Positions 21,384 to 57,295 of a DNA stretch of 64,000 nt are shown here, one piece after another; the first letter of the stretch is position 1; every line of letters starts with the position of its first letter. Location of the stretch: NCBI RefSeq assembly GCF_964204865.1, contig NC_135258.1, positions 12,524,001-12,588,000 on the forward strand, given 5' to 3'. The notes below the pieces were generated by a model, which saw only the letters and a program-made list of their open reading frames with translations, searched no databases and was not told the DNA's origin. A program made the position numbers and the translations under genes. The stretch is from Styela clava. Its lineage: Eukaryota.

Positions 21384-21590
21384 GTTGGTCATTCAGACGT
21401 TCGGGCAATTCAATCAATGCTTGAAGAAAATTATGAAAACCATCATCTTCTAACAGCAAGGGTTTTTGCCTCGGCAATTGAGTACGGTACAGAAATAGCT
21501 GGCAGACTGGTGATGCAATCTCTGAATCTACCTATGGCAACAGTACGGTATTCCTAATGCCAGAATGCTGTGATGCATGGCACTGTCTGG

Positions 21591-23900
21591 AACAATTGGA
21601 AACAATTGCGCCCAATTCTCTTACTAATCTATAATAGTTATCATAAACAGTCATGTCTGTCTCAGAACACAAGTCTTGGTGTAATAACTTTACTTTATAA
21701 AAAAGGAGATAAAAATGATATAAAAAATTGGAGACCTATTACTCTACTTAATTTCGAATATAAATTAATCGCAAAAGTTTTAGCTTTGAGAATGAAAGCA
21801 GTACTGCCTGATATAATAAATCATGACCAAACAGGATTTATTGAAGGAAGAACGATTCATGAAAATTTATTAACAATAAGAGATGACATTTTTTGGGCGA
21901 ATAAACAAAACCAACCGTTAATAATTTTTAGTATAGACCAAGAAAAGGCTTACGATACTGTTGATAGAGTTTTGTTACTAAGAATATTAAAAAAAGTTAA
22001 TTTTGGTAATTATTTCATTCGATGGGTCAATACCCTATTTAACAACACCAATGCAAAAATAATAACAAATGGATATTTATCAAAGCAATTTAGTATAACA
22101 CGAGGAGTTAGACAAGGTTGCCCCCTTGCCCCACTTTTATATATTATAATGTCCGAATTGTTAGCATCCAGCATCAGATACAATAGAGCAATAATAGGTT
22201 TTCAAAATTGTGCAGGAGATAGGGAGAAATATAAAGGTTTTGCGGATGACACTATTGTCACAGTAGAAAGTTTATCCTCCATAGATGAAGTATTAAAATT
22301 AATGGCAGAATTTGAAAAAGCTACAGGCTTGAGAATAAATATTCCAAAATGCAACATATTGTTGTGTGGGTCAGCAAAACGGCTAAACTTAGGACCTTCA
22401 TACAAGGGTATTCAAATTCAAGAAGAGCTTAAAATTCTAGGAGCTTATATAGGAAACAATGTTGTATCAAGAGATAAAAACTGGTTGAAAATCATTAACT
22501 CAATTCAAAATGTAGTAAATTTATGGCAGGGACGGAAGTTATCAATGATAGGAAAAATTATTATTGTCAAATCATTAATGTTATCCAAAGTGTGGCACAT
22601 AGCCAATTTTGAAATTATGCCAGGAAATTTCGTTCGAAAATTAGAATCTATAATATGGAAATTCATTTGGAATAATAAAACTCAACTAGTGTCAAGACAA
22701 ATTACATCTAATATTTTCACATCCGGAGGTTTGAATATGTTAGACCTCAGGAGCCAAATAAAAGCTCTTCAGGTCAAATGGATTTTTAAAATCCTCAAAA
22801 ACGAGAGTAGGCCATGGAGTAAAAGAGCCAATTATTTTATTAATAATTATTGTAATATTTTGTCCAAAGATAATTTGGAATGTCTGTATTTGAAAGTCCA
22901 ATTTGACAAAGTAACTACCATACCTAATTTTTATACCGCCATTATCAATTCATTCAAGGATATTAAGTTGGAGAGAAATCATCCCTTTAATATTACAGAG
23001 GTTAAAAATGAAATTTTATGGTACAATCCCTTAATCTCAGAGCAAAATTTTAGATTTTCGTCCAAATGGATCCAAGCAAAAGTCATTTCTGTGGCTGATA
23101 TTGTGGATAACACTGTGCATTATTTAACAAGTAGAATATATTCTATTGATCAAATTGGGGATCACAGAAGAAAGCTCTTTTATTTAAATAGATGCTCTAG
23201 TGAAATCCAACAGGTTTGGGGCAATCTACCTATTAGCTGGAAAGAAATTCTATCGAGAAATCATAATTTACCCGAAAACAGACTTGGAATCGATAGATAT
23301 ATGAACTCCAATTTATCCACCAAAAAAATAAGTAGTTTATTGAAAATAAGGAAAATCACAGAAATTGCTACACGGCATGATATGTACATTACACAAAAAT
23401 TAAATTTGAATATTCCTATAGACTGGTCAAATATTTGGCAATATAAACTCTCAAATAAATATAAAATTCTGAGTTGGAAAATTTTACATAATGGTTTACC
23501 TACGGGGGACAAATTAAAATATTGGTTTGATGATGAGAATGGACAATGTGTATTTTGTAATGAAAATGAAGAAACCTGTATACATTTATTTTGTTATTGT
23601 GATTGGATAATTGACTTTTGGCAGTGGTGCAATGTAAGGGAAATCAATTGTGACATAATTATTGCTAATAATATTCATAGTGAAGTGGTATCATTAATCA
23701 TTCAATGTGGAAAATCAGCCATATGGGAGTTCAGGAATAGTGTCAAATATGATGATGTATTCCAAATGCAATGTAACTTGCGAGCTATTTTTAAATGCAA
23801 ACTCCTGGGTGTAATCAGATTAATGTCAGATTTTGATAGACAAAGAATATTATCTGACGAAATCGTTGATGATGTACTACAAAAATCGATAATGAGTTGA
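21591..23900 (+). CDS. LINE ORF2 fragment: reverse transcriptase plus C-terminal zinc-binding domain, endonuclease missing
   Basis: NWRPITLLNFEYK, DQEKAYD, RGVRQGCPLAP, GFADD and CVFC..ETCIHLFCYC motifs in an uninterrupted frame of about 770 codons. The start codon given in the ORF track lies in flanking DNA. Confidence 0.92.
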   Translation, partial: NNWKQLRPILLLIYNSYHKQSCLSQNTSLGVITLLYKKGDKNDIKNWRPITLLNFEYKLIAKVLALRMKAVLPDIINHDQTGFIEGRTIHENLLTIRDDIFWANKQNQPLIIFSIDQEKAYDTVDRVLLLRILKKVNFGNYFIRWVNTLFNNTNAKIITNGYLSKQFSITRGVRQGCPLAPLLYIIMSELLASSIRYNRAIIGFQNCAGDREKYKGFADDTIVTVESLSSIDEVLKLMAEFEKATGLRINIPKCNILLCGSAKRLNLGPSYKGIQIQEELKILGAYIGNNVVSRDKNWLKIINSIQNVVNLWQGRKLSMIGKIIIVKSLMLSKVWHIANFEIMPGNFVRKLESIIWKFIWNNKTQLVSRQITSNIFTSGGLNMLDLRSQIKALQVKWIFKILKNESRPWSKRANYFINNYCNILSKDNLECLYLKVQFDKVTTIPNFYTAIINSFKDIKLERNHPFNITEVKNEILWYNPLISEQNFRFSSKWIQAKVISVADIVDNTVHYLTSRIYSIDQIGDHRRKLFYLNRCSSEIQQVWGNLPISWKEILSRNHNLPENRLGIDRYMNSNLSTKKISSLLKIRKITEIATRHDMYITQKLNLNIPIDWSNIWQYKLSNKYKILSWKILHNGLPTGDKLKYWFDDENGQCVFCNENEETCIHLFCYCDWIIDFWQWCNVREINCDIIIANNIHSEVVSLIIQCGKSAIWEFRNSVKYDDVFQMQCNLRAIFKCKLLGVIRLMSDFDRQRILSDEIVDDVLQKSIMS

Positions 23901-25588: not shown

Positions 25589-26431
25589 ATGTGGGCAACA
25601 GAATCTTTAGTTATACCATTTACTTTGGCACTATTGTGTTTCATTGATATTACGTTTGCAAATGATGTCATTTATGCAGTAAATGCAGGAGGAACACAGC
25701 ATGTTGATTCAAATGGAATACAGTATATTGCCGATCCATTAAAAGTTGGAGTTGCAAGTGATTATGGTCAACGATTCAATATTAGAAGAGTTTCACATAA
25801 TGATCAAGTTCTTTATCAAACTGAGAGATGGCATGATGAATCATTTAGTTACGATGTTCCAGTTAAAAGTGATGGTGATTACGTTTTGGTGCTTAAATTT
25901 TCTGAAGTTTATTTTACTGGATCAGAGCAAAAGGTATTTAACGTGCAACTCAATAATCAACATATGATTGTACAATCTCTGGATATTTTCGATAAAGTTG
26001 GCCACGCAACTGCACATGATGAAATCGTCCCTTTTTCCATTAAAAAAGGAACGTTGAATGTTGGAACTGAATCTTCATCTTTCAATAATATTTTGACTGT
26101 GGAGTTTTTAAAAGGTGCTGCTGATAATCCAAAGATATGTGCATTCTATTTGTTGAAGGGAAAACCAGAAGATGTGAATCAGCTACCTCCTTTGGATCTT
26201 CTCAACAAGGCAGAGGAAGAGGAGGAAGAAGAAGAGGAAGAATCCCCTGATGTGGGAACCAGACCGGACGACAAGAAGACAAGTTATAGTGATCAAGCAA
26301 AGCGGGAGAAATTGAAATCTGGCCCTCCTGCTGTAAATCCTTATGCAGAAGACAATAGCAGCTTGGTTTTACCTATTATAGTTGCATTTTGTGCATTCAT
26401 ACCTACTCTTGTATGTCTATGTAGGCTTTGA
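25589..26431 (+). CDS. MLEC: Malectin (ER glycan-binding lectin), intronless CDS
   Basis: Signal peptide; VIYAVNAGG..GVASDYG..LYQTER..VLKFSEVYF..KVFNV..AHDE..DNPKICA; acidic poly-E stretch; SGP..NPYA; C-terminal TM segment ending CLCRL. Confidence 0.96.
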   Translation: MWATESLVIPFTLALLCFIDITFANDVIYAVNAGGTQHVDSNGIQYIADPLKVGVASDYGQRFNIRRVSHNDQVLYQTERWHDESFSYDVPVKSDGDYVLVLKFSEVYFTGSEQKVFNVQLNNQHMIVQSLDIFDKVGHATAHDEIVPFSIKKGTLNVGTESSSFNNILTVEFLKGAADNPKICAFYLLKGKPEDVNQLPPLDLLNKAEEEEEEEEEESPDVGTRPDDKKTSYSDQAKREKLKSGPPAVNPYAEDNSSLVLPIIVAFCAFIPTLVCLCRL

Positions 26432-27346
26432 ATTCACTAAGAACCGTAAAAGTGAAGTTATTGAGCACAGAAATTTTTTTTAGGAAATTTACTGTTGTAC
26501 GTCTGAACAACTGATATATACTTGAGATATCAAAATGTTCGATTGTTTTTGGTGAAAATGGCATTTTTGATAATTTTTTTTCTAATGTTTTCCGACATTG
26601 ACCAGAGCAGCTGTTGCCATCTAAATTCTGATGAAAATATGAAATTCTTATCAAACTCTATGCATGTGCAAAAATTTAAAGTTAGGCACAGCTGCGGTGC
26701 ATGTATTTGTCCTGTTTTTTTGCAAATTATTTTGTATTTATGGTTTTATCAGATGTTACAAACATTAGTGTATGTAATTTGTTAATTATCCTGTAAGGTA
26801 TGTAATTTATATCTGCATATTGGCTGATAAAAATAATTTATGATCTAGTGTTGGTTTTGCCACATTGATTACAACACAGCAGAGAGAGAATCGCCTTGAA
26901 AATGTGTCTGTAACATTTCTTGTGTTATATGTTCTTGTAATTGTTAGGTAATCTTTACGTAGTGTATAATTAAAAGTGGGAATTATACAATATTTTTATT
27001 GCTAATCAAATTCACTGAAGTTGGGGATTAATTGTGGACGATATTATTTTAACTATCAGTAGAGGTTGCGTGACACTAACTCCCAATCCTTCCTCAATGC
27101 CTTTGTGTATGCGTATAATGCAAGGATGTTGCGGCAGGAATAAAAATACCATGCTATACATACTCAATTTGAATTGATTAGTATGGTATTATTGTAGTTC
27201 ATGTTTCATATTCATTCATCCAAATCTAATTGTTAACAGAAAAAAATGTGCCCAATCATATTTTAGGACTAAATTTACGTTACTTTATGAAATTGTTTAG
27301 GGTGCATATCCTTAAAGTGGTATCATCCTTCATTTATTACGTAAGA

Positions 27347-27532
27347 GGGTATTAGTTTTGGAACAATTTTTTTCTTAAATTAAGCTCAGAGTTGAAAATT
27401 TTTAGTTCTGATTATAAAGATGTATTTCATGTGGTACTGTCCTTCATTTAAATATGTAATAGGGTATTAGATTAGAAACCTTTATTTCTCAAATTAAGCT
27501 TTAGAGTTGAAAATTATTAGTTCTATTATAAA
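27347..27532. repeat. Two imperfect direct repeats of about 70 bp in the MLEC 3' region
   Basis: GGGTATTAG..TTCT(T/C)AAATTAAGCT..AGAGTTGAAAATT(T/A)TTAGTTCT..ATTATAAA occurs at about 27347 and 27462. Confidence 0.6.
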
Positions 27533-29197
27533 AATGAATACAACTACATAATATTCTGCTCAAAGTTGGTTATTAAAGTCTAAAAAATAAGACAATTTTT
27601 GAATTTAAATATTGATCGCTAGATTACATGTACTTTGTCATTATTAAGATTTTTTAAGCCAAGTTCCATGGTTAATTGTTTTTTGATAGAAATGCAGTCA
27701 TTGATCGCTGGCAATAGTGTAGCAAGCGTAGGTTTTATTTTGTTGAATGCATTGTGCAATCATTGTTAAATCTTATCAAGTTGTTCCAATTCAAAGTGAC
27801 TGAAAAGTTTTACCAAAACTTGTGCTTCCCGATGCCTTTCTTTTGGGGCCTCAATATCATTTTTTATAAAAATTGTTAGTTTTAGTCAAAAGTTTCTATT
27901 TGTTGTTTCTTTGAATGGCATCAATTATTGGTTACATACTACTTCAATGCAAAAATGTTTAGAAAATTCTGGATTCAAAATTGATTGTGCTTTGTTAACA
28001 CTGGTTGTAATTTTTTTACAACTAAACATGGTATAATCAGTGCTTACAATCATTAGTAAGTGGCAAACGTTTTTCCATTTTGATTCTGGAATAATAAAAA
28101 TAAAGCACAAAATCTTGGGTTGAAAATTTTGTTGTTTAATATTAGTTTACAAAAAAACTTCATCCTTTTTTCATCCTGAAACACATAAATGTCCTCTACA
28201 ATCACTTTCTGAAATTTGCACACTTTATGCAATATTATATCTGATATAATATTATTCAAAAGTGTCTTGTTTATTAAGTGCATAGGTATACAATGCCATC
28301 TTAAATGTTATATTTCAATATTGCTTAAATTATAAAAAGTCTGTTTTTGACAATGACACCAATCTTATTTGAATGTTCAGTGAATCCTTTGATTTGGTAT
28401 TCCATACCGTTTCACATTATTTTACATCGATGGATAATGCAAAAAATCATATATAACTAATGTTTTTGTGTTTGTGTATACACTATCTATTGTGAGTTTA
28501 AATTGATATGTTATTGACGGAGTGCAAATATGAAACACTCTATAATGGTTTCATAGTTATTTGGAGAAAATAAGTTGAATCAAGGTAATTGTATTAAAAT
28601 AAAATAAGTCCTTAAAAACTTTGTCCTTAGAATTCAATTCACCCACTGAAACTAAACGCCAACAAGCATCAACAAACACAATCAAGTCATTCACTTCTAA
28701 ACAATGCTAAACACATTTCCAGATTCATTCCTAAAAAAATATTTTGGCATTTTTTTCTGAAATTTTGATCCAAATTATTGCTATAAAGATGTGTCAAATT
28801 TTGTGACAATAAATTAAACTTTTATCCTGATTTTTGCATATGGATCAATATAACAGCCTTCAACGAATCTCAATATGGCATAATATTTCAACCTAAAAAA
28901 TGTCCAAAATGCTATTTTGACTTATTTCACTGTCGCTTGTAGTTGTGTAATTAAATAATTGTTTCTAAATCCCAGCCATATAACCTTAGTTGAATTTATA
29001 TTTAGTATAGATATAGACTAATTATGCCAATGACCTATACTTTAGTTACACTGGGTTTTTGACTGGGATAATCACTGCACGCTTTCTAGGTTATGTGCTT
29101 TGCAATACTGTAAACGGATTTTGTTCTTATTTTAGAATGATAATGTAGTAATTTTTTTCCAAACAAAGACTGCTTTTTGGGTATAAAAATAAGAAAA

Positions 29198-30889
29198 ATG
29201 TCACACATCAGTAGGATCGCGTCTCCTATGAGCTTATGTGAAGAGGATTTATTCGATGTTGACAAAAAAGTACAAAGCAAAATTCGTCTTCTTGAACAAT
29301 TACAAAAAGAATCGCCCGCTTCTTTTCTTGTTGGTACGATTGGAAAAATTAACCAAAGAATCACCAATCTTGATGAAGAATTATCAAAATATGAGAGCCA
29401 GCTTGAAATTGACAGTAGAACACCAGAGCCGCAAAAGAGAACTGAATCTTATGCTGAAAGCTATTCTCCCTCTATGAGCATTCGTGGAACAACTCCTTCA
29501 GAGAAAAAGTATGGTGCTGATGTAGAAAAACAAGCTCCTGGAACTCCAAGAGCAAAATCAAGTGACGCTCCTCGATTGGTTGAACTCCAGCAGTTCCCAG
29601 GATGGAATAAGAAGAAATGTGCTCCTCTACCGCATTCTCTACAAACTAACAAGGTGCTTGATAATGTTGTCGCTGCTCAACCAGATTTGAAACACAAAGT
29701 TGCGTTTCGTCGGGAGTTTTGCAGACTACTGTTTTCAAAAATGCAAGAATCGATACTGCAAGATGGTTTCTGGTGGTTTTTCTTGAGAAAATTTCATCCT
29801 GATCCAATCAACCAAGGCAAGCTCTTTAAAAGAATATCAACCAATTTTGTTGGTCTGTTACTCAGTGCTGAAATTCCGAAGTATAGAGATTTGTTTTTCG
29901 CTAATTATGGTACAATTCTGGCTCAATCAATTTATGCTGCTTTTTGCCTTGCATTTCCGCAGTCATGGAGGCAGTTTGACGAACCAGCGTTCAAGGAAAT
30001 GTTAGCTCAAGTTTGCGGCGAATGGATTTCAGGTATTCCACCGCCACCTCGCTCTTATGAAAAATGGAATATGGCAGCTTTAGAGCCAGATGGGATGCGA
30101 AAGGAGGAAGTTATAAAAAAGAAAAAGAGACCTGATCATGCAGCCAAGTCTCTAGGTGGAAGAGCAAGTTCATACAGCTCCGCTGCTTCAACTAAAACAT
30201 CGTCAATTCGATCACCGACTGGATCTCAAAAAACGCATGGATTAAGAATGCATACTGCTAAATCAGATGCTGCATCTTGTGCACATTCTCCTAAACTAAC
30301 ACCGCGTGTTGCGGAATTAGCATCTGAGCAAAATGCCCTTTCAACAATTACAGAAGAACCTTTGACATCAACCACTGAAAGCACTGCTGGATTAAGAACG
30401 AAGTTTATTGCACCAAAAAGCGATTCATCTTGTGCTGCTGGGCGTGCAATGGAGTTTTCAAGGAATGTCTTCAACGTGTATGGTCGCTCACCATTGCTTG
30501 TTCAATTTTCTCGTCAATATGGTTTCGAGAAAAAATCCTTTTTTGATGTATTAGTCCAGCATTCACTTATTCAAACACCACCAGCTAAAGATGCCCAAAC
30601 CTATCAAGACATCATTTACGAGAGCAGAATTAAAGCATCCGCCGCAGCACAATCTTTCAAACATATTTACGAAGAAGACATGAAAGCTCACAAATCTTTT
30701 TGTGCAAAACAGCGAGAGGAATTACAAAATTTCAAAAAGAAAACGGATAAATTATTGTCGAAGCCACGTCAAGTTCACTATCTTAGTAATCTCATCTTGA
30801 TGGAAATGAAGAACTTAGAAGAAGATACGAATCCGGTTGGTGCCACTGCAACAGTTCAAGCTGCTTTATCTGCAGAATCAGCTGATTAA
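29198..30889 (+). CDS. FAM227-family (FWWh domain) protein, intronless CDS; first ATG at 29198
   Basis: 563-aa ORF with ILQDGFWWFFL, LFKRISTNFV, LAQSIYAAFCLAFPQS and FNVYGRSPLL, characteristic of FAM227A/B; the paralog cannot be assigned. Confidence 0.85.
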   Translation: MSHISRIASPMSLCEEDLFDVDKKVQSKIRLLEQLQKESPASFLVGTIGKINQRITNLDEELSKYESQLEIDSRTPEPQKRTESYAESYSPSMSIRGTTPSEKKYGADVEKQAPGTPRAKSSDAPRLVELQQFPGWNKKKCAPLPHSLQTNKVLDNVVAAQPDLKHKVAFRREFCRLLFSKMQESILQDGFWWFFLRKFHPDPINQGKLFKRISTNFVGLLLSAEIPKYRDLFFANYGTILAQSIYAAFCLAFPQSWRQFDEPAFKEMLAQVCGEWISGIPPPPRSYEKWNMAALEPDGMRKEEVIKKKKRPDHAAKSLGGRASSYSSAASTKTSSIRSPTGSQKTHGLRMHTAKSDAASCAHSPKLTPRVAELASEQNALSTITEEPLTSTTESTAGLRTKFIAPKSDSSCAAGRAMEFSRNVFNVYGRSPLLVQFSRQYGFEKKSFFDVLVQHSLIQTPPAKDAQTYQDIIYESRIKASAAAQSFKHIYEEDMKAHKSFCAKQREELQNFKKKTDKLLSKPRQVHYLSNLILMEMKNLEEDTNPVGATATVQAALSAESAD

Positions 30890-31004
30890 AATGTTAGATA
30901 ACATATCACTGTGCCTTATCAGTTATCTTAGTATTAATATATAAATTGTATTATGTTGTCATAGTTTTAACATCTATTGTTCACTGTAATTTTCGTAACT
31001 GCTG

Positions 31005-31600
31005 TACTACTACTTTACCTAAATATATCTTCAAGTGTAGTTTTAATTTTATAGTTATAATATATTTAAGTTTCATTGCCATGATTATACCATACAAATT
31101 GATACAATGTATTTTACCAAAGTTGTGTGTGCTTATTGTAGTTTTACAAGCATATAATAAAATGACATGTTTTCGAAAATTATCATAAATTCCATAAAAA
31201 GTGCTTCGTGATATTATTTTATCTAATATATCTTCAACTGTTTGTAGTTTTTTGAATGAATTTAGATTAAAATTATTCGTTGGTGCCATTGACATGATTA
31301 TACAATGATGTAATTTATCAAATTTTTGCGTGCCTATAAGCCCATTGTATTGTTACAAGTATTTAATAGAATGATATTTTTTTAGTTATTATTACAAATT
31401 CCAAAAAAAGAGTACTTCATGGTATTATTTTACCTAACATATCTTCAAATGTTTGTAGCTTACCTGTTACAGCATAATTTAATGAAATGTCATTGCCATG
31501 ACTATACAATGCTGTTTTTTATAATATGTTTGTGTGCTTATTGCCTATTATAGTTTTACAAGCATATAATAAAATGATTTGTTCTATTTTTAGATATTAC
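31005..31600. repeat. Three degenerate tandem repeats of about 205 bp between FAM227-like and RAD1
   Basis: Anchor ATATCTTCAA at 31025, 31228 and 31439; shared CATTG(C/A)CATGA.TATAC and TTACAAG.AT.TAATA.AATGA. Confidence 0.75.
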
Positions 31601-31642
31601 TGTTAATCCAAAAAAGCTGTTTTACTTTATAAATATTGATAA

Positions 31643-32470
31643 ATGGATGGCACAACGCTTGAAGATGAGGATTACACATTCCTAGCCAAACTTGGTAATG
31701 CAAGAAATCTTTCACACATTTTAAAAGCGATACATTTCAAAGATGTAGCAACTGTATTTGTAACAGAAAACGGTTTGAAAGTAACTGTAGAAGATGCGAA
31801 ATGTTTGCAAGCTAATGCTTTCATTCAAGCAACTGTTTTTGATGAATATGATGTCCATGAAGAAGTAAACTTCTGTATCAATTTGAACGTTCTTCAAGAG
31901 TGTTTAACTATATTTGGAAGTAGTTCCATTATGACAACATCGTTAAAAATGGTTTATGGGGGATATGGTTCACCTCTTACTCTAACCTTAGAAGAAGAAA
32001 ACATTACAACTGATTGTAGTATAAAGACGCAAGAGTCAGAAGAGACTCTAGATTTTGAATTCTGCGCTGCTAATGTTGTTAATAAAATTATAATGAAAGC
32101 TGATTGTCTGCGAGACGCTTTTAACGAGTTAGACCACACTTCTGATGTGGTTGAGATTACGATGTCTCCACAAAAACCATATTTCCGACTTTCAAGCTCA
32201 GGATATTGTGGACGAACAGATAATGATATTCATAAAGATTCTGATATGGTAGAAATCTTTCAATGCTCAGAGCCGCAGTCAAATCAGTACCGTTTATCCT
32301 TGCTAAAACCTTCCGTAAAAGCAGTTAATCTTGCAAGTAAAGTCTGTATAAGAATGGATCATCGTGGGTTTTTATCCTTCCAATACATGATCAAAAATGA
32401 AAGTGGACAAATTTGTTTTGTTGAATATTATTGTTGTCCAGATGAAAAATTTGATGAAGAAGATGTTTGA
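31643..32470 (+). CDS. RAD1: Cell-cycle checkpoint protein RAD1 (9-1-1 clamp), intronless CDS
   Basis: LGNARNLSHILKAIHFKD..GLKVTVEDAKCLQANAFIQ..ECLTIFG..PYFRLS..LLKPS..GFLSFQYMI..FVEYYCCPDE. Confidence 0.97.
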   Translation: MDGTTLEDEDYTFLAKLGNARNLSHILKAIHFKDVATVFVTENGLKVTVEDAKCLQANAFIQATVFDEYDVHEEVNFCINLNVLQECLTIFGSSSIMTTSLKMVYGGYGSPLTLTLEEENITTDCSIKTQESEETLDFEFCAANVVNKIIMKADCLRDAFNELDHTSDVVEITMSPQKPYFRLSSSGYCGRTDNDIHKDSDMVEIFQCSEPQSNQYRLSLLKPSVKAVNLASKVCIRMDHRGFLSFQYMIKNESGQICFVEYYCCPDEKFDEEDV

Positions 32471-39673: not shown

Positions 39674-40129
39674 AAAGGTATACGACTTGTATTTATAAAG
39701 ATATAAAGTAACAGAAAATTAAAATATATTTATTTTATTTTTAAGGATATATAAATTATGGATTTGTGCCTTGTAGATTAACCAATAAAATAAAATGTGA
39801 AATTGTCTAATACAAAACTTCTGCATTTGATAGAAATAGGTAGCCTTGGCACATAACATCTTTCACCTATAAATGCGGAAACAACTAATAAAAGTTGAAC
39901 GTGATAAAACTGTCCTTATGTCATCATTCATAGCATTAGTTAAAAATAATATTTCATCAATATTGAAATTTGTTTAAAGTATCCAATTCTTGGTTGGAAG
40001 TGTAAGCGTGGTCATGGTTTACAAATCGCTTTGTATGTAATATACTGTTAAATTTTATCTGTTCGTGTTATGCAGAGGATTCACTTTGGAATGGCACTTT
40101 CGAATTTTCCCTATTTCCACGTTAATGCT

Positions 40130-43100
40130 TCATTCTGTATCTTCCAGCTCAATCCACTTTGGACCTTCATCTGCTCGAACAGGTTTCTTTTTGCCATGCA
40201 ACGAAGGAGCGACAGCATAATTGAACCAGCTTGGAACTTCATCGCTGCTGTATTCAAGTTTTTCCAATTTCGACCGGAATTTGTGAGCCATAGCCCTGGC
40301 AGAAATAAACAATCATACTGTATTGTCATCATTCCTGCTGGGCGCAACATTTTAAACCTCAGCTTTCGCAAATAGTTAATTTTAGTTGTTATGACCGCTC
40401 TTTCAAAAGTCTGGAATTTTTCTAGTTGCGCTTTGGTTATGATTGAAAACAGTGAAAATATCAACAATTATTCATGCCCGGATTACATGAAATATATTGA
40501 TTGTTTGTACTTACTTTGTCACACTTTTACAATACAGCATTATCAAAACTCGAAGTTGTGCACATCCTTTTCTTAAATATTTAAGTGCTCTGTCACTGAT
40601 GTGGATACAGCCTGATATGTTGAGGATATGAATGTAATGACAAACGCCAGACAAGTATTGAATGCTTAGATCGGTAAACTGAAAATAAATAAGAACTTTA
40701 GTATGGTGTTTATAAGCATCTTTGTGATATCGAAAAAGTACCACCATCATGAAAAATGTGACTGTGCATCTGCACAGAGTTGAAACAAACTTATCATTTT
40801 CGTGCATTTTTTTAAAAAACTTTGGGAGATATTTTGGTTACTCCCGTAGTATGTGTACCAGGTTAAGGTTAGGCCATAATTTTATTCTGATTTTCCTTAT
40901 TTTAGTTCTATTACGAGTTCGGGGACTGTCTGTTTAAGCCAAGTGAATATACCCCCTGCTCATAAGTTTCAGTCCCTTTAATTTATTTTGTATATTTGAT
41001 GTAAAGTAGACGACCAAAAATAGTTACCTCCATGTTGGTACACATACTTCTGGAGCGCCCAATTTATTCATTTAGGTTAGGGACGTTTGAAGCTAATAAG
41101 AACATTGACAATTTGTATTATCTATGAAACCTACCAATGGGCATCCAGAAAGATTTAAGCTTGTCAGCATTCTGCAGCAGAAAGCGAGATTTTTGATTGC
41201 TGTATCGGTGAGAGTCATGCAATGGGAAACATCAAGTTCTTCCAATTCTTTTACTTGTTGACAAAATTTTTGTAAACCAAGATCAGTGATGGATGAACAT
41301 TCTGATATTACTATCGACTTCAATCTACTGTTGGTTCCGAGTGCAGTAAGACCCTGGGTAAAAGGGAATTTGTCAATCTGGAAGCCGATGGCAGGTTATG
41401 CAGCATCTTGTTCTGCCAGTACAGTTTGGGGGTTCCGCAAGTTTCCATTCAAATGCGAGAGTCAATATATGTATATTGTAAGAATATAGTCAAATTAGTT
41501 TTACTAATGCTGAAAAATTTGTAGATCATCAGGTTCGCTTTTATACATATGAAACAATACAGGCAAGCTAATGCACAATGGTTCCTCACCAAAAGCCAAA
41601 TCGGTAATTGCCAAATATGTTCCGCAGTTGGGTTTTATCTTTTCAGTATACTTTTGCATCCATGAATAAAGTGAAATACCTTCTAGTGTGTGCGGATTTA
41701 TTAATTCTGTAAGCTATGACTAATTTCAATTTTCTAAATTGAATTTTCTTTTCTCAAACTGGCAACTGTAGGTTTGTGAAAAAAGTTCACTAGGAAAGTC
41801 TCACCTGGTCTTGAATGTTTGTGCCAGACAGGTCGACATGCGTTAATGAAACCATGTTCCCAAGCAATTCAATTCCAGCATCTGTTACATGCTCACAGAA
41901 ACATAGTGATAAGTGAGTTAATCCATGGCATCTGAAAATATTGGATACTCAATTGAGCTTTCCTGGGTTAAGTCATAGTCAATTTTATTTTTTCCAACCA
42001 GCAAAAAAATAACATACAAAATCAAAAAATAAACAAAATTTAACACACATTTTTACTGGGGAAGGGAAGCCGCGGGGAACCAAATTTGGTTATCGAGCAG
42101 CGACACCCAAGTTAAGTTCTTTGAGTCATCAGATCTTAGAATATTTATAGTGATTTAGTTGAGAATGATATGCTCTGCCGTGTTGGAAACACATAATCAG
42201 ACTTTTAATATTAGCTCTCATTTGCAAGATAACTTTTATAGTTATTCGGATTATGATGTCATTAACGAAGTCTCAATCAGATGGAACCATATTCTGAAAT
42301 TACCATGTGTTACTTGTTGTTGTTGTCAATTACAAAGACTATAGAGTGCAAGTGAATTGGCATTATAGTTTTAATTATTGTAGTGGATTCTTGTACTGAG
42401 CCTTGTTTGAATTGAAAGCATATGATATGGCGAAAAGATAAGCATATGCCATTACCTTTGTGCTATTCTCAGTAGAGAGACATCACTAACTCTCACACAA
42501 TTTGTGAGATTCATTTCTCGAATCTTCGGTCCAGAAGGACCTTCCACTAGCTGTCTCACTCCTGAGTCGCTGATTCTCACACAATCCGCAACATTGATGA
42601 CAATGATGTTTCTTAACGAAGCAAGTGCTTTCAACATCATGTCTGTGATTCTCTGACAATCCACGACATAACTAAATAGAAAAGAGAATAAAATTACAAT
42701 TACCACAAAACAAAGGCAGCTGTTTTGAACATGGCGCAAAACAAGCAGGCACTCAGATATACAATTCTATTGGATTTCACATTTTCATTTGTGCTGTATC
42801 AGACATAATATTCTTGAACATTTGGATTCCTTGAAACTAATTATTTGAGTTTCTCATGACCTGCTTAACAATGTTGTCAAAATCTGATTTGTTGTTTGTA
42901 ACAATTGCATCTATTCAAGTTTCAATATTTTTCTATACCTAGATTGGTCACCATTAAAGTATTTTTTTTTAATTCTCTTATTGATGAAACGATAATCAAA
43001 TTTTATAAACACGAATTAACAACAAGTAACATGTTTTTTTTCCTATTTCAATGATGCTTACATGTGGCCAAGCATTGGGCATAGCTTTCCGAATGTCTTA

Positions 43101-46100
43101 AACGTGTTATCTGAAATCTTTTGGTTTCCTTCGATTCGAACTTTCTGCAGTCTCTTCCCTTGTGCTAGAGCTTTGAACGAAGAATCAGAAAGATTTGGGG
43201 ATCCAATAAGATATAATCCCTTGATATTCAGGCATTTCTCTGCAATATTCTAAGAAAAAACGAAATAAAATAATTTATTACTGTATTTTAAAGTTTGTAT
43301 GATTTGAAAACATATCTTCTTGCAAGTCATCTCGAAGATATACAGCCTTCAGAAGCTGCAAATCCCAAGTGTGCATTGCTATTATTGAACATTAATAAAT
43401 TGATAACCATTTTGTCATAGTACGGTAATTTAGTTGGTGTGGGTATGGCTTACATGTAACAAGTCGATTTAGTCATATTTGCATTAGAAATCATGGATAT
43501 TGATTTCTGGTCATCAAACTGCATCATCATTGTGTATTGAATCTACTATAGAGAGAGTAAATTAAAGACTGAATTCACATCTTAAGACAAATCTTACTGT
43601 TAGACAGCTATCAGTAAGAGTATGTAGATCATTCAGAAACAGTGATTGAAGACCATTGCATCCGTTAGATATATGCTTGAATCCCTGAGGAGTTATTTGT
43701 GTGCAGCCAGACAGGTCAAGATAAGTCAGTTTCTTACATCCTTTCCCAGTAGCCAGATAGTACAAGCCTCTATAGCAAAGAAATGTTCCACTTCAAATCA
43801 TTGTCCAACAATTTATGTTAAAAAAAAAACTTAACTGTTTAAAAATTGAAATTTTTCTCTCTCTTCGGATAATTATATCTTATATATGTTTCAGCCATGA
43901 TTATGGACTTTTCTTCAAATTAATTTCTAGCATACCTCTAGTTAATCCAATATTAACTGTTATACAATATATACTTATTGTCCTTTTTATGAGTTGCTTT
44001 TGCTACAAATATAGCAAGTTACTTGATGGAATCAATTTTTTTTTATATTTCAACATGGTGTCATAAATAACACCCTGCATGAGGTAAAAGGCTCATGATA
44101 TATAGACAGCAATACCTATCTGTAAACTTGTTACAATATGCCAGACTCAAGTATTGCATGTTCAGACAACATCTTGCCAATGTACGCAATGTGCCATCGG
44201 TTATTTCAGTGTACGAGAGATTGAGATACAGAAGCACTGGACATCCTTCAGCAATTGCTCTTATAATTTCATCCTGTAGAAAAAATCATTATTCACACAA
44301 ATGTAGGTTAAAATTAAGGGCTCACACACTACTAAATAATATACAATGCATTACATTGACTCCTTTGCATTCTGAAATGTTTATATCCTGAAGATTTCTG
44401 CATTCAGCAATTGCTTTGAAGGCAGGCCAATGCACAGCAAAACATTGTCGAAGATTAAGATGTACAAGGTATGGACGACTCTTCTGTAAGCACTGAATAA
44501 TGGCTCTATCATTCACTCTGAAATCAAATATAAATAATGTTAAAAATGTTATCAATATACCTAGATTATACTTCCATATTGAAAAATGTCCCTCACCATA
44601 TTTAAAAAAAAAGATGTTTTAGGTTAGTACATTTTTGAAGGCAGCCAGCGTTAATTTCAAATTCAAAAATAGAGACCAATGAATGTCTCGCAACTGTGTC
44701 TTAAGACACCAACAATGTCCTGTAAAAGTATCCGCTTTTTATTTATTTATCAGGCAGACGAAGTTACACATTTTGAAACAAATATACATACCTGCATACT
44801 AAAACCTTAAAGTAATCACCTGAAGACAGCACCAATAGTCACCTAACTTGATGCTTGAGTGTAAATAAAAAGTATCTCACTTACTTATTTTTAATTCTAC
44901 TGAAGTTAAGATGACTCCATAATGAAGGTGCTCCAGTGATAACTTTCCATGCTCTACAAACTTTTGCACATCTACTAAGTTCAATCAAGTTCAGGTTACT
45001 GAATATTTGTATAGCACATCTTCGTGGAAGCAAAGACACTTCATCTCTAGTAGAAAAATTAATCTTTAAAATGTTGGCGTTGGCTTGAGTGTTTTTCTTT
45101 TTAAGTTAACACATTCAAACATTACCTAAATGTATCACTAGGCAGATCCTTGTCTCCAGTTTCGACACCGAATTCTTCATCCAATTCTCCACGTTCTAGA
45201 CGTTCAAAATATTCTCTAGTCTTACGTGCGTCTACAGCAACCGATCTCCAAGCTCGAAAAACAAGCCGACAAACTGATTCATTCCAAACTTTTGAAATCA
45301 TATCAAAACCACCTAAAAAATTTTTTAAAATAATATAGAACTACAAAATAGTAAAGCTCCAATATATGGTTACCGCGAGAAAAAAGCCAGTATCTAGATA
45401 AAATCCTCAAAGTAAAAGTCATTGCTTTTAATTATGAATCCTATGGATAGATTTGCCGAAATTTTTCCCAGTAATTGGGCTATTTTATTTCAGTTGGATA
45501 AAAATAGATATATTTTACTATTTTGTCTCTTTTTCACGTAACATTTCCAAGTATGCCATTTAGAAAATGATATTCTCATCATTCTTGTCCTGTGGTATCT
45601 GAAATAAAGTTCTAAAATCTTGATATTGAAAAAAAAACAGTTTAAAGTAAACCAAATACTAATATAAAAAATAATATCTGTTGTTTATTTTTCATGTATA
45701 AATGGCAAGTTTAGGCTTCAAATTACACATGACTGTCCTTAAAATAATTTAAATACAGCATTTGGCTCGATAATTCAAGTATGTCCAAAGTTGTACATAC
45801 TGTCTGGCTTCTTTGACTTTATTTCGAATCATATTTCGATGATTTTTCTTGTCCAAGTAGTATTTAAGCCATCCTTTGAAACATATCTTTTGTAATCTGC
45901 CATAATAATGGCTATAGGCTGCTTTCAGCATATCTGGTGATGGCTAAAATTATGAATTGCACTGTTAGTTGACGTTTCACTTTGAATAAAAGAAGAAGAA
46001 ATATTTTAAAAAAATTTACGGTTAACTTGTCATAAAACTTGAAAATCTCATCCAAGTAACTTTCTGCCATTTGTTTTATCTTTGGCTGACATTCAAATGG

Positions 46101-46819
46101 AACGAACATATCCCTGAAATGAAGAGCAAAAGTTAGTGGTCAAAAACGCAATGTTAAATGAAGATTTAACATCATATGCAAACTTATTTTGATGCAGGTC
46201 CTACCATTACATACAAATTATAATCCTTCACCTACCATGTCATTGTATCCAGACCTTGATCGCGTATTTTTTTAATGCTTTCAACAACCCATTTGTAAGG
46301 ATCCTCTGGACATGCTATCATCAAACCAGTAAGGATACACTGCGAAAAATGAAAGGTTTGTAATAAAATTACAATCATTAAATATCTAAACTAGTATTAC
46401 AGCATTGAAGGATAGGATAGGATTTACATATTCATCCAGGGGGTGAAAAAAACCGATAAGACGACTCAATCATATGGCGAACCACGACCTACGGAGATGC
46501 CGTGGTGAGCGTATTCCTAACGCTTAGCACGATGAGCCACACCGCCGAGCACAATAGGAATGCTATTGACTGGGTGATTAGCGCAGATTCTGAGTGTTTG
46601 GAACTAGGGTACTTTTCATTATTTATTTACTTTATATTAGCAAAACTGGGCTGTATTTTTAGCAGTATTTTTATCTTTGTTGCAACCTGAGAAAAAATAT
46701 GAAAAAAAATCCTAAATCTGAAAATTGTGTAGTATTGTTATCACCTCATATACTTCGGGAAGTTGGTGTACTTTAAGATATTCTTTTAGTGCGGGATCGA
46801 TCCCTTGAAGTGACGCCAT
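40130..46819 (-). CDS. FBXL13: F-box and leucine-rich repeat protein 13 / dynein regulatory complex subunit 6, about 16 exons
   Basis: Start MASLQGIDPALKEYLKVHQLPEVYE; ILTGLMIACPEDPYKWV; F-box exon (SLLPRRCAIQIFSNLNLIELSRCAKVCRAWKVIT); many LRR exons (YLDLSGCTQIT, REMNLTNCVRVSDVSL, LDVSHCMTLTD, LNISGCIHISD); final exon ends WIELEDTE-stop at 40130. Not every exon boundary was resolved. Confidence 0.9.
40837..41060. mobile_element. MITE family A relative in an FBXL13 intron
   Basis: GGTTACTCCCGTAGTATGTGTACCAGGTTAAGGTTAGG ... GGTACACATACTTCTGGAGCGCC; inverse of 2579-2772. Confidence 0.65.
46410..46546 (-). mobile_element. Short tRNA-derived SINE (internally deleted) in FBXL13 intron 1
   Basis: The minus strand begins GGCGGTGTGGCTCATCGTGCTAAGCG (A-box-like), contains GGTTCG, and ends ATATGTAAATCCTATCCTATCC. 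The same tail occurs at about 56310-56328. Confidence 0.55.
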
Positions 46820-46921
46820 TGCCTTTATTTCGCACCAAGAGAAACTTAGTAGATATAGACTAGCAAAATCATTTACAGAAAAAGAAATCAGAACGTCTCG
46901 CGGGAATTTTGCTGCTTCACC

Positions 46922-46935: not shown

Positions 46936-47329
46936 ATATCAGGTCAGCGTCGCGGGTCACTGATTCTTTCGCGTGACTAAATATGGTCCCAAATATTTTG
47001 TTTTTCTCCAAACAATCCCGCTGTATATTTATATTTAATCCTCTAAAACTTAACTCACTCTCTGCTATGACACGTTGCTGTAATGATTGCTAAAAGAATA
47101 AAATAACCATTCATAGTCGTTTGCGGCGCAGTGTATTCATTGCTTATTTATAGCCACAGAGAATGATGGCCCTGTATATTATAGCGATTACCCCGTGCAA
47201 GATTTTCATTTTACATGTGGTTAGTACAAAGAGTTAGTACAAACTATTTTGGACATAATCATAGTTCGTCTGTTTGATTTTTACTCGTTGAAGATGAAAT
47301 TGAAATAAAATCTAACCATCAACTGTCGT

Positions 47330-47665
47330 CCGATGGCAGTTTGGATAGGATTTTCATATTTATGGGAATAGTTGAACAATTCAGAGTTCCAGATGCGTGG
47401 AAAATCGTAATAAATGTTCATTTTTATATCCCGTTTCTGTACATGTTTAACTGTAATTTATGACATATTTTACACTTTTATTTGTGCATCATTCACTAAT
47501 TTCTTTATCTTATTTATATTTTATGTACCGGTAATCCATTCGCATTTACCCTGGTACTATATTATGCCATGATGTGCTTATATATAGCATAAACACAAGG
47601 GTCGGGAGCCTAGATGAACCCAACCGGTCCTGCACACCGACTCGCACAAAACAATAATCAATCAC
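47330..47665 (+). mobile_element. Possible degenerate 3' end of an L2/CR1-type LINE
   Basis: Residual FRVPDAWK peptide, T-rich UTR, GC-rich terminal hairpin region and AATAATCAATCA tail. Confidence 0.3.
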
Positions 47666-48351
47666 TGTTATTACTGCTGAAATATTTTCTTTAATATATT
47701 ATGTTTATATTAGTGTTGATTTTGTTTTTGCGGCAATGATTCTCTCTCTTTATTTCTATTTTATTCGAAAAGTACATTTTTACTTCTATCCAAGTGCATT
47801 TTCACTCTTTAAACAACATAACAGGACAGAAATTTGTTTTATTTTTGTTAAGTAGGTTTCGGCACAAGTGCACAAACCAATCATTCCTGCATAAACATTG
47901 GCAAATTTGACGCGAGACAAGGAACGCATGACTCAGCCTAAAAGGTTAAGGATAAAAATGTGATCGACTCCGATCACCGCTGCACTAAGAGGAAGTACCC
48001 GTCTTGACCGTTTTCTTCCCAGCAGATCAGCTGGTAACTTTTGTGTCAAGCGAGCTGTGCTAAATGGGGCAATTACGCCATGAATAACTCGTTCATAAGG
48101 CTTCACTTTAATCTGATTTCGAAGCACCAATTTAATGGCACATGATACAGTAATAGCACGAAGTTATTCAAACGTTAGTATTAATCATAAATCTGAAAGA
48201 ATTTTATTGCAACAGTAAATTACAATAATATTTTGAGTATGACATATTTTTTTCTTTTTGTTCAAGTAGTTCCTAAATGAGCATAGCGTTGTCAGGTTCT
48301 GTTCAATTAAATTTTGATATTTGGTACCGGTAGTGGTTGAAACATTTTACT

Positions 48352-48930
48352 ATGTCTGGTCGTAAAATTCAAAGTGATGCAACTGCAGTGCCAAAAATGT
48401 ATACTGGGGGAAAATCAACTAAACAATATGTTGAGGACACAGTAAGAGAAGCTATGGCTGAAGTTAATAGGGCAACAGGACATCTTGGAACTGTTAATCC
48501 TGGAAAAGTTTCATATAACACTTCAGGAGGTGGAAGTGCCATCAACCAATTCAATATTGTGGGAGGTACTATTGGTCAAGCGGCAATTGGTAACAGAGGT
48601 GACACTGTTTTCAACGAAGAGAAAAAAGTTTTCCAAAAAGGTGCCTCAAACACTAAATACAACATTAGTGGAGGAAATTTCAATCAAGCAAACATTGGTG
48701 GAACTTCTCACTACAATAACAAAGAGTGCGAAATTGGATCTGGTGGTGGTGGTAAAGGAGTTTCATTGTCAGCTGAAGATTTGACCCTAAGCATTTTGGA
48801 CAAAGGAGTTACAGCTGAGCAGTTTGTCTTGCTCCTTGAAAGGAAATATTCCTTGGCGAATATTGCTTTTGCGATGCCCAGTGATCCAGAACTCAAAAAT
48901 CGTATGGTTGATGCTCTTCTTGTGAAGTGA
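48352..48930 (+). CDS. Uncharacterised intronless 192-aa protein with G/N/Q-rich RHIM/amyloid-like repeats and a C-terminal helical region
   Basis: Clean ORF with coding-like composition in AT-rich DNA; first ATG at 48352; in-frame stop at 48331; AG acceptors at about 48266 and 48295. No family recognised. Confidence 0.75.
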   Translation: MSGRKIQSDATAVPKMYTGGKSTKQYVEDTVREAMAEVNRATGHLGTVNPGKVSYNTSGGGSAINQFNIVGGTIGQAAIGNRGDTVFNEEKKVFQKGASNTKYNISGGNFNQANIGGTSHYNNKECEIGSGGGGKGVSLSAEDLTLSILDKGVTAEQFVLLLERKYSLANIAFAMPSDPELKNRMVDALLVK

Positions 48931-50179
48931 TTACCAAATCAGACTTTCTCTTGTAAATAGTTATCATAGTTTTTTTTTCAAACATAAATCAAGCAATCGA
49001 ATGTGCTTTATCATCAACAATGTGTTTTTATTTTAAATGAAACTTCATGTTCATTTTAATTTAAATGTTTCAAATATAATTTTACTTTGTTTATGCATGT
49101 TTAGTGATACTGAACATCAATCTTTACCACATAAATAGGGTCATACTTCATGAGAGGATGATTTTGGATGTCATGAGAAAGATTATCTCTATAAATATGT
49201 ATAGTTTGCCAGCTGTCTTAACTCTATCAGTAATGATTGATTCTCTTTGGTCAGGGATATGCAAGGCCCGGTACACTTGGGTGTGCGGCAATTACGACTA
49301 TGGTTTTCATGGATATAAATTTCCATTGAAAATAATGTCATAATGACCCCGATTGCCACATTGTGCTTCTTATTATTATATAAATGTTAGCCTAGCTGTT
49401 GAACTAGCTTTTGTAAATAAACTGTTTTTTATTCATAGCTTTTCATATTAAGTTTTTGAGCCTCTGGCCCACTCAGAAAAGTAATTGCCCACCCCTGTCT
49501 TTAATGTTATCTAAAGAATGGCATCCAGTAAATGTCTAAGCTTGATTGTATGTAATGCACAGCTGAAGTCAATTGAGTACTATATTTTATTGTATCATGT
49601 ACAGAAAATTATTATGCAATGAATTTCTTGCATTAAATAAAGAACGAGTTGTAACAGAATGGAGAATTTGTTTTATATGAACTTTCATGAGTTTTTATTA
49701 TTGCTCTCATCTTTTATAATTGATCAATAATCTTGTATTTTTATGCATAGAATGATGTATTCAAAAGTATATGTTCCTGTCCTAAAAAAAAATCTCATCT
49801 CATCTATAATTGCTAAATTAAAATAATAAACTATTTCTAATATACAATATTTTCTACATTTATAATAGAGTGGAAAATTTGCATGGAATTGTTACAGCAC
49901 ATAACTTTATAAAGATATTTTTAACTGCTGCGCCTGTGGGCAATTTTACTATTGATTATGATATGTTGTAAAAAAGAATTATTATGGATTATTTTAAAAT
50001 TCTAGAAATAACCATATCAAACTAAGTAACTAACTAATACTGAATGTGTTTGAATATTCAATTTGTTATGGAATGAACATTTACTGTGGAATATGTAACT
50101 TGGTTGTCTATATACAATTTTTATTCATCTTTTTGTATTATAATTAGATTTAGAATACATAACACTATATACAATAGCA

Positions 50180-50956
50180 ATGTCTCACAAAAAACAGCAT
50201 CAACGGAGGAAAAACTTCAAAAACAAAAATAAATATGAAACGCCGCAACTTGCAATGGATGAAGAGGATTTACATGAACCAAGAGGCACGACGAGCAATT
50301 TTACAATAGCATGCCCCCTTGCAATGTGGGACCTGGGACACTGTGACCCGAAAAAATGTACAGGAAGAAAGCTTGCTCGTAAAGGAGCAGTTAGATTACT
50401 GAAATTACAACAAAGATTCGCTGGAGTAATATTAAGCCCGATGGCTACTGAATATATCAGTGCCGGAGATAAAGACAAAGTATTAGCTCATGGCATAGCT
50501 GTAATTGATTGTTCATGGGCAAGGTTGCAAGACACTCCATTTTCAAAAATGAAAGGAGGTCACTTGAGACTTTTACCATACTTGGTTGCAACGAATCCAA
50601 TAAATTATGGCAAGCCCTGTAGGTTGTCATGTGTGGAGGCATATGCAGCTACACTTTATATTGTTGGGCTTGAAGATAGTGCTAAATCTGTTTTGAAACC
50701 TTTTAAATGGGGTCCCAACTTTTTTACATTGAATGAGGAACTTTTGGAGTTATATCAGAGTTGTGAAAGTTCAAAAAGTATCGAGACAGCTGAACAAAAT
50801 TGGCTACAAAATGAAAGAGATGAACTTAATGCTAAAAGTGAAGAACGGGATCCTTTTGATATAGATTTAAGTGTTGAACACTGTAATCCCAACCATACAT
50901 CCCTGCCACCAGATGAAGATTCTGATTCTTCCTGTAATTCATCTGAAGAAGTTTGA
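50180..50956 (+). CDS. TSR3: 18S rRNA aminocarboxypropyltransferase TSR3, intronless CDS
   Basis: LAMWDLGHCDPKKCTGRKL, VIDCSWA, RLLPYLVATNPINYGKPCRLSCVEA and FKWGPNFFTLN; acidic tail. Confidence 0.97.
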   Translation: MSHKKQHQRRKNFKNKNKYETPQLAMDEEDLHEPRGTTSNFTIACPLAMWDLGHCDPKKCTGRKLARKGAVRLLKLQQRFAGVILSPMATEYISAGDKDKVLAHGIAVIDCSWARLQDTPFSKMKGGHLRLLPYLVATNPINYGKPCRLSCVEAYAATLYIVGLEDSAKSVLKPFKWGPNFFTLNEELLELYQSCESSKSIETAEQNWLQNERDELNAKSEERDPFDIDLSVEHCNPNHTSLPPDEDSDSSCNSSEEV

Positions 50957-56406: not shown

Positions 56407-57295
56407 TGGGGATGGCAAAATAGGGATGGCGAAATACGGTCGAAAGGTGGCAGATTAGGGATGGCGAAATAGGGACGAAAAGCCAAATTGGGGATGGCAA
56501 AATGCGGTCGAAGCGTGGCAGATTAGGGATGGCGAAATACGGTCGAATGGTGGCAGATTAGGGATGGCAAAATGCGGTCGAAGCGTGGTGGCAGATTAGG
56601 GATGGCAAAATGCGGTCGATGGGTGTCAGTTTTTGCCAAATCGACTGTCATAATGCGCTGTTTAGTATACAGATAACAATAAACAATTGCCTCAAAATGA
56701 CAAAGAAATATGGCCAAAGTGTTTAGATTTGGGGCTGATGAAATGGATTAGTACCTGTCAAATTCGGGCTGGGAAAACACAGTCGATGAGTGTCAAAATG
56801 GGATGGCGAAATGGGGTCGAAGCGTGGCAGATTAGGGATGGCGAAATGCGTTCGAAGCGTGGCAGATTAGGGATGGCAAAATGCGGTCGAAGCGTGGTGG
56901 CAGATTAGGGATGGCAAAATGCGGTCGAAGCGTGGTGGCAGATTAGGGATGGCGAAATACGGTCGAAGCGTGGCAGATTAGGGATGGCAAAATGCGGTCG
57001 AAGCGTGGTGGCAGATTAGGGATGGCGAAATACGGTCGAAGCGTGGCAGGTTAGGGATGGCGAAATACGGTCGAAGCGTGGCAGGTTAGGGATGGCAAAA
57101 TACGGTCGAAGCGTGGCAGATTAGGGATGGCGAAATGCGGACGAAGCGTGTCAAATTGGGGGTGGCGAAATAGGGTCGATTCCTGTCAGGTTAGAGATGA
57201 TGAAATATGGTCGATGCGTTTCAGATTAGGGAGGGCGAAATAGGGCAGTGGGTTGACGGGTGTCATGTTAAGGATGGCGAAATGCGTGTCAGATT
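56407..57295. repeat. 35/38-bp G-rich minisatellite in two blocks
   Basis: Unit GATTAGGGATGGCRAAATRCGGTCGAAGCGTG(GTG)GCA, roughly 20 units, interrupted at about 56620-56780. Confidence 0.92.

Follow-up and report, generated by a model that had tools for sequence, protein, structure and literature searches.

Three described systems stand closest to the protein considered here: the RHIM of animals, the HET-s-related motifs and the pentapeptide-repeat proteins. The RHIM is defined by a core tetrad, (V/I)-Q-(V/I/L/C)-G (PMC9444067), and the interiors of beta-arcades are described as apolar or filled by Asn/Gln and free of uncompensated charge (PMC4262963). According to published work, tunicates appear to be without RHIMs (PMC4262963), RIPK1 was not found in them (PMC12119088) and ascidian NLRs are reported to have no CARD (PMC11508797). 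A 2021 review lists among the open questions whether animals have any signalling amyloid besides the RHIM (PMC7889193).

The HET-s-related motifs (HRAM1-5) consist of 21-aa repeats joined by a loop of 6-18 aa, which is variable in length and unconserved; the repeats group by their order in the protein, and both charge complementarity between rungs and concerted evolution of the repeats have been reported (PMC4518210). For pentapeptide-repeat proteins, a run of eight or more contiguous pentapeptides is required (PMC8145042).

The gene LOC120338966 and its surroundings

In the window, that is, the whole 64-kb stretch of Styela clava DNA that was analysed, an ATG-initiated ORF of 192 aa occupies positions 48352-48930 (+), as described in the first-pass annotation of this DNA. 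By exact look-up (same cluster) its product is XP_039262924.1, the 'uncharacterized protein' of Styela clava LOC120338966, the database allele having one extra Gly. LOC120338966 is a real, expressed, intronless gene. The ORF is covered, together with about 0.9 kb beyond it, in three RNA-type runs from three studies; in two of the three it lies in one unbroken contig, which bears out the earlier claim that it has no intron, and in the third it is spanned by overlapping pieces. RNA-type cover is almost nil at 47000-47420, and a DNA-type run covers the whole region. The RNA nature of the RNA-type runs rests on a spliced leader: 24 additional letters head the X7 contig, which opens at 48268; they are absent from the 64-kb window and match the 'Chordata 1' spliced-leader consensus (Table 1 of PMC3795323). 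This leader is joined at the AG downstream of a pyrimidine tract, the two forming a trans-splice acceptor (48245-48269, +), so that the contig derives from a processed mRNA, the body of which starts at 48270. Lack of a transcript had been named as grounds for discarding the initial proposal; a transcript exists, and it carries a spliced leader.

The RNA-type contigs run on past the ORF to about 49800-50100, and the segment 48931-49830 (+), with AATAAA at 49416, 49636 and 49825, is probably the 3' UTR. Among the 40 of 117 substitutions listed, the ORF alleles show two synonymous changes and one change in the Gly-rich tether described below (G133V), and among the 12 of 23 indels listed only in-frame 3-base indels, all in this tether, fall within the ORF, single-base indels being found in the UTRs. 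An upstream ORF of 18 codons is present at 48277-48333, between the acceptor and the ATG, and single-base insertions occur in it in alleles of two runs. High-copy short repeat elements flank the ORF at about 47560-47845 and 49256-49537, the second within the 3' UTR, with DNA depths of up to about 4000 and 11000 vs about 50.

The neighbours of LOC120338966 are housekeeping genes, namely an F-box/LRR gene, a tRNA synthetase, TSR3, RAD1 and malectin. The multi-exon F-box/LRR gene (about 40100-46820, -) lies head to head with LOC120338966, about 1.5 kb from the acceptor; its best PDB match is FBXL2, and presumably it resembles FBXL13/DRC6. This LRR gene was considered as an NLR and rejected, being an F-box/LRR gene. 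No second copy of the twin-repeat motif was found in the six frames of the window. As regards TSR3 (50146-50956), its X7 contig opens at 50146 with 18 letters that do not align and are probably another spliced leader. RNA cover is nearly continuous from the 3' UTR of LOC120338966 to this gene, so that the two genes may form an operon. Other intronless genes of the window are malectin, FAM227, RAD1 and TSR3 (within 25589-32470 and 50180-50956), so that the absence of introns is not peculiar to LOC120338966. The window also contains a non-LTR element with an intact reverse-transcriptase ORF of 775 aa (21573-23900) and a tandem array of about 24 copies of a 35-base unit (56413-57242).

A family of ascidian proteins with two repeats and a helical domain

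The protein had been described as an orphan, which proved wrong. An index-free homologue search at E 0.001 or better gave 23 matches. Besides the query, these comprise 21 relatives, which are 61-252 aa long and 12 of which reach E 1e-10 or better, and an unrelated repeat protein of 959 aa (P0030, E 5.8e-4), which aligned to aa 19-71 and was dropped; a word-index search returned the query alone, or two relatives with the full alignment. Of the 21 relatives, 20 were looked up: nine are named, all of them ascidian, and the other 11 are nameless. The named entries, all 'uncharacterized', come from Styela clava (LOC120329665 and LOC120330353), Ciona intestinalis (LOC100179113 and LOC100187324), Ciona savignyi (H2ZPM2), Clavelina lepadiformis (LOC143463057 and LOC143461797) and Phallusia mammillata (two entries). 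They are genuinely homologous to LOC120338966, sharing its core and helical domain, and both major ascidian groups are represented in the family. The tree hints at two ancient sets of paralogues, both of which include Ciona, Phallusia, Clavelina and Styela members (81/83 support), in an overall poorly resolved topology in which 5 of the 18 inner branches are starred.

Searches of Pfam, NCBIfam and PADLOC gave no family common to more than one of the 22 members. PDB sequence searches returned no match for the core and, with the full profile, nothing beyond weak matches and designed helical repeats; no usable match came from the ESM Atlas, and no related loci were found in the metagenome, viral and phage collections searched. 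Runs X14 and X15 contain short identical pieces, which do not amount to an orthologue, and a 2574-base contig of run X16 matching 40 bases of repeat 2 is a mere hint. No paper naming these genes was found in a search of the openly accessible literature with six identifiers, six identifiers likewise had no match in 11 supplementary files of a Ciona proteome study, and the passages seen of PMC8195603 and PMC12261475 are silent on tunicate motifs.

The 20 full-length members that were aligned are all laid out alike: the N-terminus is variable, the core (about 65 residues) comes next, and a tether connects it to the helical domain (about 53 residues). In LOC120338966 the variable region covers aa 1-64 (48352-48543, +; 5-15% mean identity), and in the relatives 4-107 residues precede repeat 1. 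Two features earlier noted here are present in the Styela protein and are not features of the family: the partial third copy, YNTSGGG, at aa 55-61 (5% mean identity in 19 relatives) and the predicted N-terminal helix at aa 26-41 (6% in 19 relatives), the latter appearing only in a low-confidence, single-sequence model (pLDDT 37). In P0013, P0014 and P0032, of one paralogue group, an extra conserved Gly/Asn/Ile strand-like segment precedes the core, a possible third rung.

The two repeats lie where they had been placed, 36 aa apart, at aa 67-81 (48550-48594, +; 49% mean identity) and aa 103-117 (48658-48702, +). The second is the most conserved part of the protein (65% mean identity), with G108 and F110 invariant in 19/19. 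Between them, aa 82-102 (48595-48657, +) comprise a fourth strand and a charged linker of fixed length, with conserved positions F87 and [YF]94-x-x-G97 ([YF]94 in 19/19, G97 in 18/19). The core ends with aa 118-129 (48703-48738, +), where Y121, N123 and I128 are conserved in the alignment. A Gly-rich tether of variable length follows (48739-48765, +), the distance from the core to E142 ranging over 20-53 residues in 20 members, and the protein closes with the conserved C-terminal domain, aa 139-191 (48766-48924, +). This domain corresponds to the helical C-terminus, about 55 aa long, that was noticed at first; AlphaFold predicts it as a separate, confident unit of four helices (pLDDT about 90, range 86-92), and it is present in 20/20 full-length members. 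No signal peptide and no membrane helix were found, no 19-residue hydropathy window exceeding 1.51 in 20 members; as there is no membrane-length hydrophobic stretch, the proteins are likely cytosolic.

Within the Styela protein the repeat is modest. Its best self-diagonal score, 46, is reached by 5 of 2000 whole shuffles, by 76 of 4000 composition-matched shuffles of the Gly/Asn-rich middle and by 11-25 of 1000 local shuffles, and the second of these figures could be taken to favour a spurious, non-coding ORF with a chance low-complexity repeat. In the family profile, computed from a core alignment of 19 rows (the fragments P0023 and P0027 and the divergent P0031 being left out), the repeat at offset 36 has z = 4.6, is equalled in 0 of 5000 column shuffles and is the sole such peak among 48 offsets; a weaker peak at offset 41 is reached by 102 of 5000. 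This family-level repeat, the transcript with its spliced leader and the 21 relatives, 12 of which are strong, refute a spurious ORF, against which the in-frame state of the listed ORF indels also speaks, and its probability is vanishingly small.

The spacing of the repeats is 36 in 16/19 rows and 35 in 3/19. In both repeats, motif positions 6, 8, 13, 16 and 18 are kept hydrophobic, position 15 is Asn/Gln and position 19 is Gly. Similarities are higher among first repeats (R1-R1 32) and among second repeats (R2-R2 44) than between them (R1-R2 22), so the repeats cluster by order. Ile/Phe recur in them every five residues, and on two of the three faces the residue two places earlier (i-2) is small; two-residue alternation is absent (lag-2 correlation 0.10).

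Possible forms of the core: stacked rungs, closed domain or hairpin

An AlphaFold model was built from a 30-row alignment for a single copy. Its core is all beta at low confidence (pLDDT 53-73), with two strands of 19-20 residues at aa 74-93 and 99-117. A Foldseek search of the core against PDB and viral models gave nothing at E 0.001 and no solenoid match; the neighbours are weak long-hairpin proteins, e.g., the FliF collar, at E 1.3 or worse. From secondary structure and these matches, the modelled core may be read as a hairpin. On this basis aa 68-122 could be one long antiparallel hairpin with its turn at [YF]-x-x-G-[AS], copies of which would build a ring, barrel or sheet. The two strands, the ring- or pore-forming hairpins among the weak neighbours, the invariant length and the conserved turn are in line with such a structure. 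A hairpin, however, leaves the direct in-register repeat unexplained, and column hydropathies correlate at 0.74 in parallel at offset 36 vs at most 0.35 in the 11 antiparallel registers tried. It also lacks the two-residue alternation of membrane barrels, and its model is of low confidence with no match at E 0.001. It is considered markedly improbable.

A closed fold has more in its favour. The core may be an ordinary folded beta domain that closes up as a soluble dimer or trimer. Its fold would be either an interlocked sheet or a short beta-helix of the pentapeptide type, and the protein would be a scaffold or adaptor that forms no amyloid and serves in housekeeping or development; taken as a whole, this account is judged somewhat unlikely. 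Fixed repeat spacing and a conserved linker agree with it, as do the five-residue Ile/Phe periodicity with its secondary peak at offset 41, the housekeeping neighbours, and two sub-threshold Pfam hits to beta-rich trimers or helices, Tailspike_C (E 0.095) and, in 1 of 22 proteins, LbH_GLGC (E 0.064). Against it, each repeat holds three pentads vs the eight or more contiguous ones needed (PMC8145042), the strict pentapeptide consensus is found in 0 of 114 pentads (49 of 114 in a version that we loosened), and no capping helix adjoins the core, the helical domain being held on a variable tether of 20-53 residues. What keeps the closed domain and the hairpin in play is mainly the conserved linker of fixed length, together with the AlphaFold model.

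The reading tentatively preferred here is that of a two-rung beta-solenoid that would polymerise in a HET-s-like manner and so cluster the tethered four-helix domain as a signalling switch. We infer its steps as follows. Repeat 1 would stack on repeat 2 in parallel, with the Ile/Phe of positions 6, 8, 13, 16 and 18 facing inwards, the Asn/Gln of position 15 forming a ladder and Gly at the turns. Because two rungs without a capping element would be unstable alone, copies would join in head-to-tail order and give a filament that templates itself, and this stacking would gather the helical domains, which may then recruit or activate a partner. The parallel hydropathy register and the family-wide offset of 36 argue for the solenoid, and the repeats, poor in charge (5-6%) and almost free of Pro vs a linker (aa 89-102) with 32% charged residues, point to stacked rungs of the kind described for beta-arcades. 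The all-beta core of the AlphaFold model, the separate C-terminal domain and the variable flanks of the core are likewise consistent with a switch. The fixed and conserved linker, the AlphaFold core without a solenoid and the housekeeping neighbours count against amyloid signalling, as, weakly, does the failure of insensitive searches to bring up a partner. The idea of beta-arch stacking first put forward for this protein is strengthened by the in-register repeat across ascidians, the near absence of charge and the HET-s-like spacing.

The same sequence evidence would suit a functional amyloid or filament with a structural or storage role, such as a cytoplasmic scaffold or condensate, instead of a signal relay. 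In its favour, the 21 relatives are all short proteins built alike, and searches that are insensitive to single repeats brought up none fused to a receptor or an enzyme. That insensitivity weakens the argument, and the occurrence of two repeats plus a globular domain in every full-length member probably fits a switch better; a purely structural polymer is rated as rather improbable. A partner search with the core profile (proteins of 122-2000 aa, 7993 scored) recovered only 8 of its own 19 rows; it returned eight proteins, all known members, and hence no partner with the motif, being blind to a single 20-residue repeat.

For the C-terminal helical domain, which was the main subject of the VIA structure search (the core fold was barely covered), no clear fold match was obtained. 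The best match is MTERF4 (Z 5.1, rmsd 2.7, 54 aligned), and the Fas death domain gives Z 3.1 (rmsd 2.7, 43 aligned); in the comparisons with death-fold, UBA and MTERF structures all Z values are in the range of common helical arrangements.

Comparison with RHIM, pentapeptide-repeat and HET-s proteins

The family resembles RHIM and cRHIM motifs in its short hydrophobic strand, Gly/Ser arc and strand ending in Ile-Gly, and in its low charge; tandem copies, comparable to the twin repeats, occur in ZBP1 (PMC9444067; PMC4262963). It differs in having no Gln-containing tetrad and no kinase, death, TIR or Z-alpha domain, and no kinase, death-fold, TIR, Z-alpha or PGRP domain was found in the family proteins. 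The RHIM-like assignment of the first-pass annotation therefore fails, the tetrad being found in 0/38 repeats (0/19 in each). That the repeats are nevertheless true, divergent RHIM/cRHIM motifs, and the protein a RHIM adaptor or decoy, is very improbable. Such a relationship could be argued from the hydrophobic strand and Ile-Gly at the motif end and from the sequence LQIG-x-x-N in Ciona LOC100179113 (P0021/P0037), which lies in the N-terminal region (aa 59-65), outside the core. This stretch, however, is not retained in the Phallusia orthologue P0016, the Pfam RHIM profile had no match in 22 proteins at E up to 10 (with filters that drop matches above about 0.1), and RIPK1 is reported not to be found in tunicates (PMC12119088).

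With the pentapeptide-repeat (Rfr-fold) beta-helices the family shares the five-residue Ile/Phe spacing with small residues two positions before, and repeat 2 reads like three Rfr-type pentads. Unlike those proteins, it has three pentads per repeat and Ile, not Leu/Phe, at most centres, and no Pfam pentapeptide match was found in the family.

The likeness to HET-s goes further. Two imperfect repeats occur at a compatible offset (36 or 35), they group by order, and hydrophobic residues at positions 8, 16 and 18 with Gly19 are kept in 19/19, 16/19, 19/19 and 14/19 rows for repeat 1 and in 19/19, 12/19, 19/19 and 18/19 for repeat 2; the protein is also small, with one globular domain on a tether. 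Positions 5, 10 and 15 do not conform (1/19, 2/19 and 0/19 in repeat 1; 2/19, 0/19 and 0/19 in repeat 2), as the family is hydrophobic at 6 and 13 where HET-s is so at 5 and 10, and carries Asn/Gln at 15 where HET-s prefers Arg/Lys. In contrast to the HET-s loop, the linker is fixed in length and conserved. The charge pairing and concerted evolution reported for HET-s-related motifs gave no signal in tests of low power, with 5 same and 2 opposite charge pairs between rungs (few charges, 19 rows) and p = 0.55 for concerted evolution (19 rows). Whereas HET-S effectors have an N-terminal helical domain, that of the family is C-terminal, has no HeLo match and is accompanied by a variable N-terminus; nor does an NLR gene with a single repeat adjoin LOC120338966, unlike the HET-S arrangement.

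An immune adaptor or decoy role for these proteins is hypothetical. By analogy with HET-S, the family might make up one half, the effector or adaptor with two repeats, of a second amyloid signalling system in animals that does not use the RHIM, a proposal that is, in our judgement, unlikely. In ascidians, taken to have no RHIM proteins and NLRs devoid of death folds, a short motif at the head of an NLR would template the twin-repeat filament, and this relay would be a chordate parallel of the fungal NWD2/HET-S pair. The family is in this respect a small, conserved candidate bearing on the existence of a second signalling amyloid in animals, with orthologues in the model Ciona; should its role lie outside immunity, there would still be a conserved family of ascidian proteins with two domains and without a Pfam, NCBIfam or PDB match.

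On the sequence comparisons made, the family belongs to none of the RHIM, HET-s and pentapeptide groups. Its twin repeat is a new candidate amyloid motif, unlike the definitions of all three that were tested, and in layout the family most resembles HET-s.
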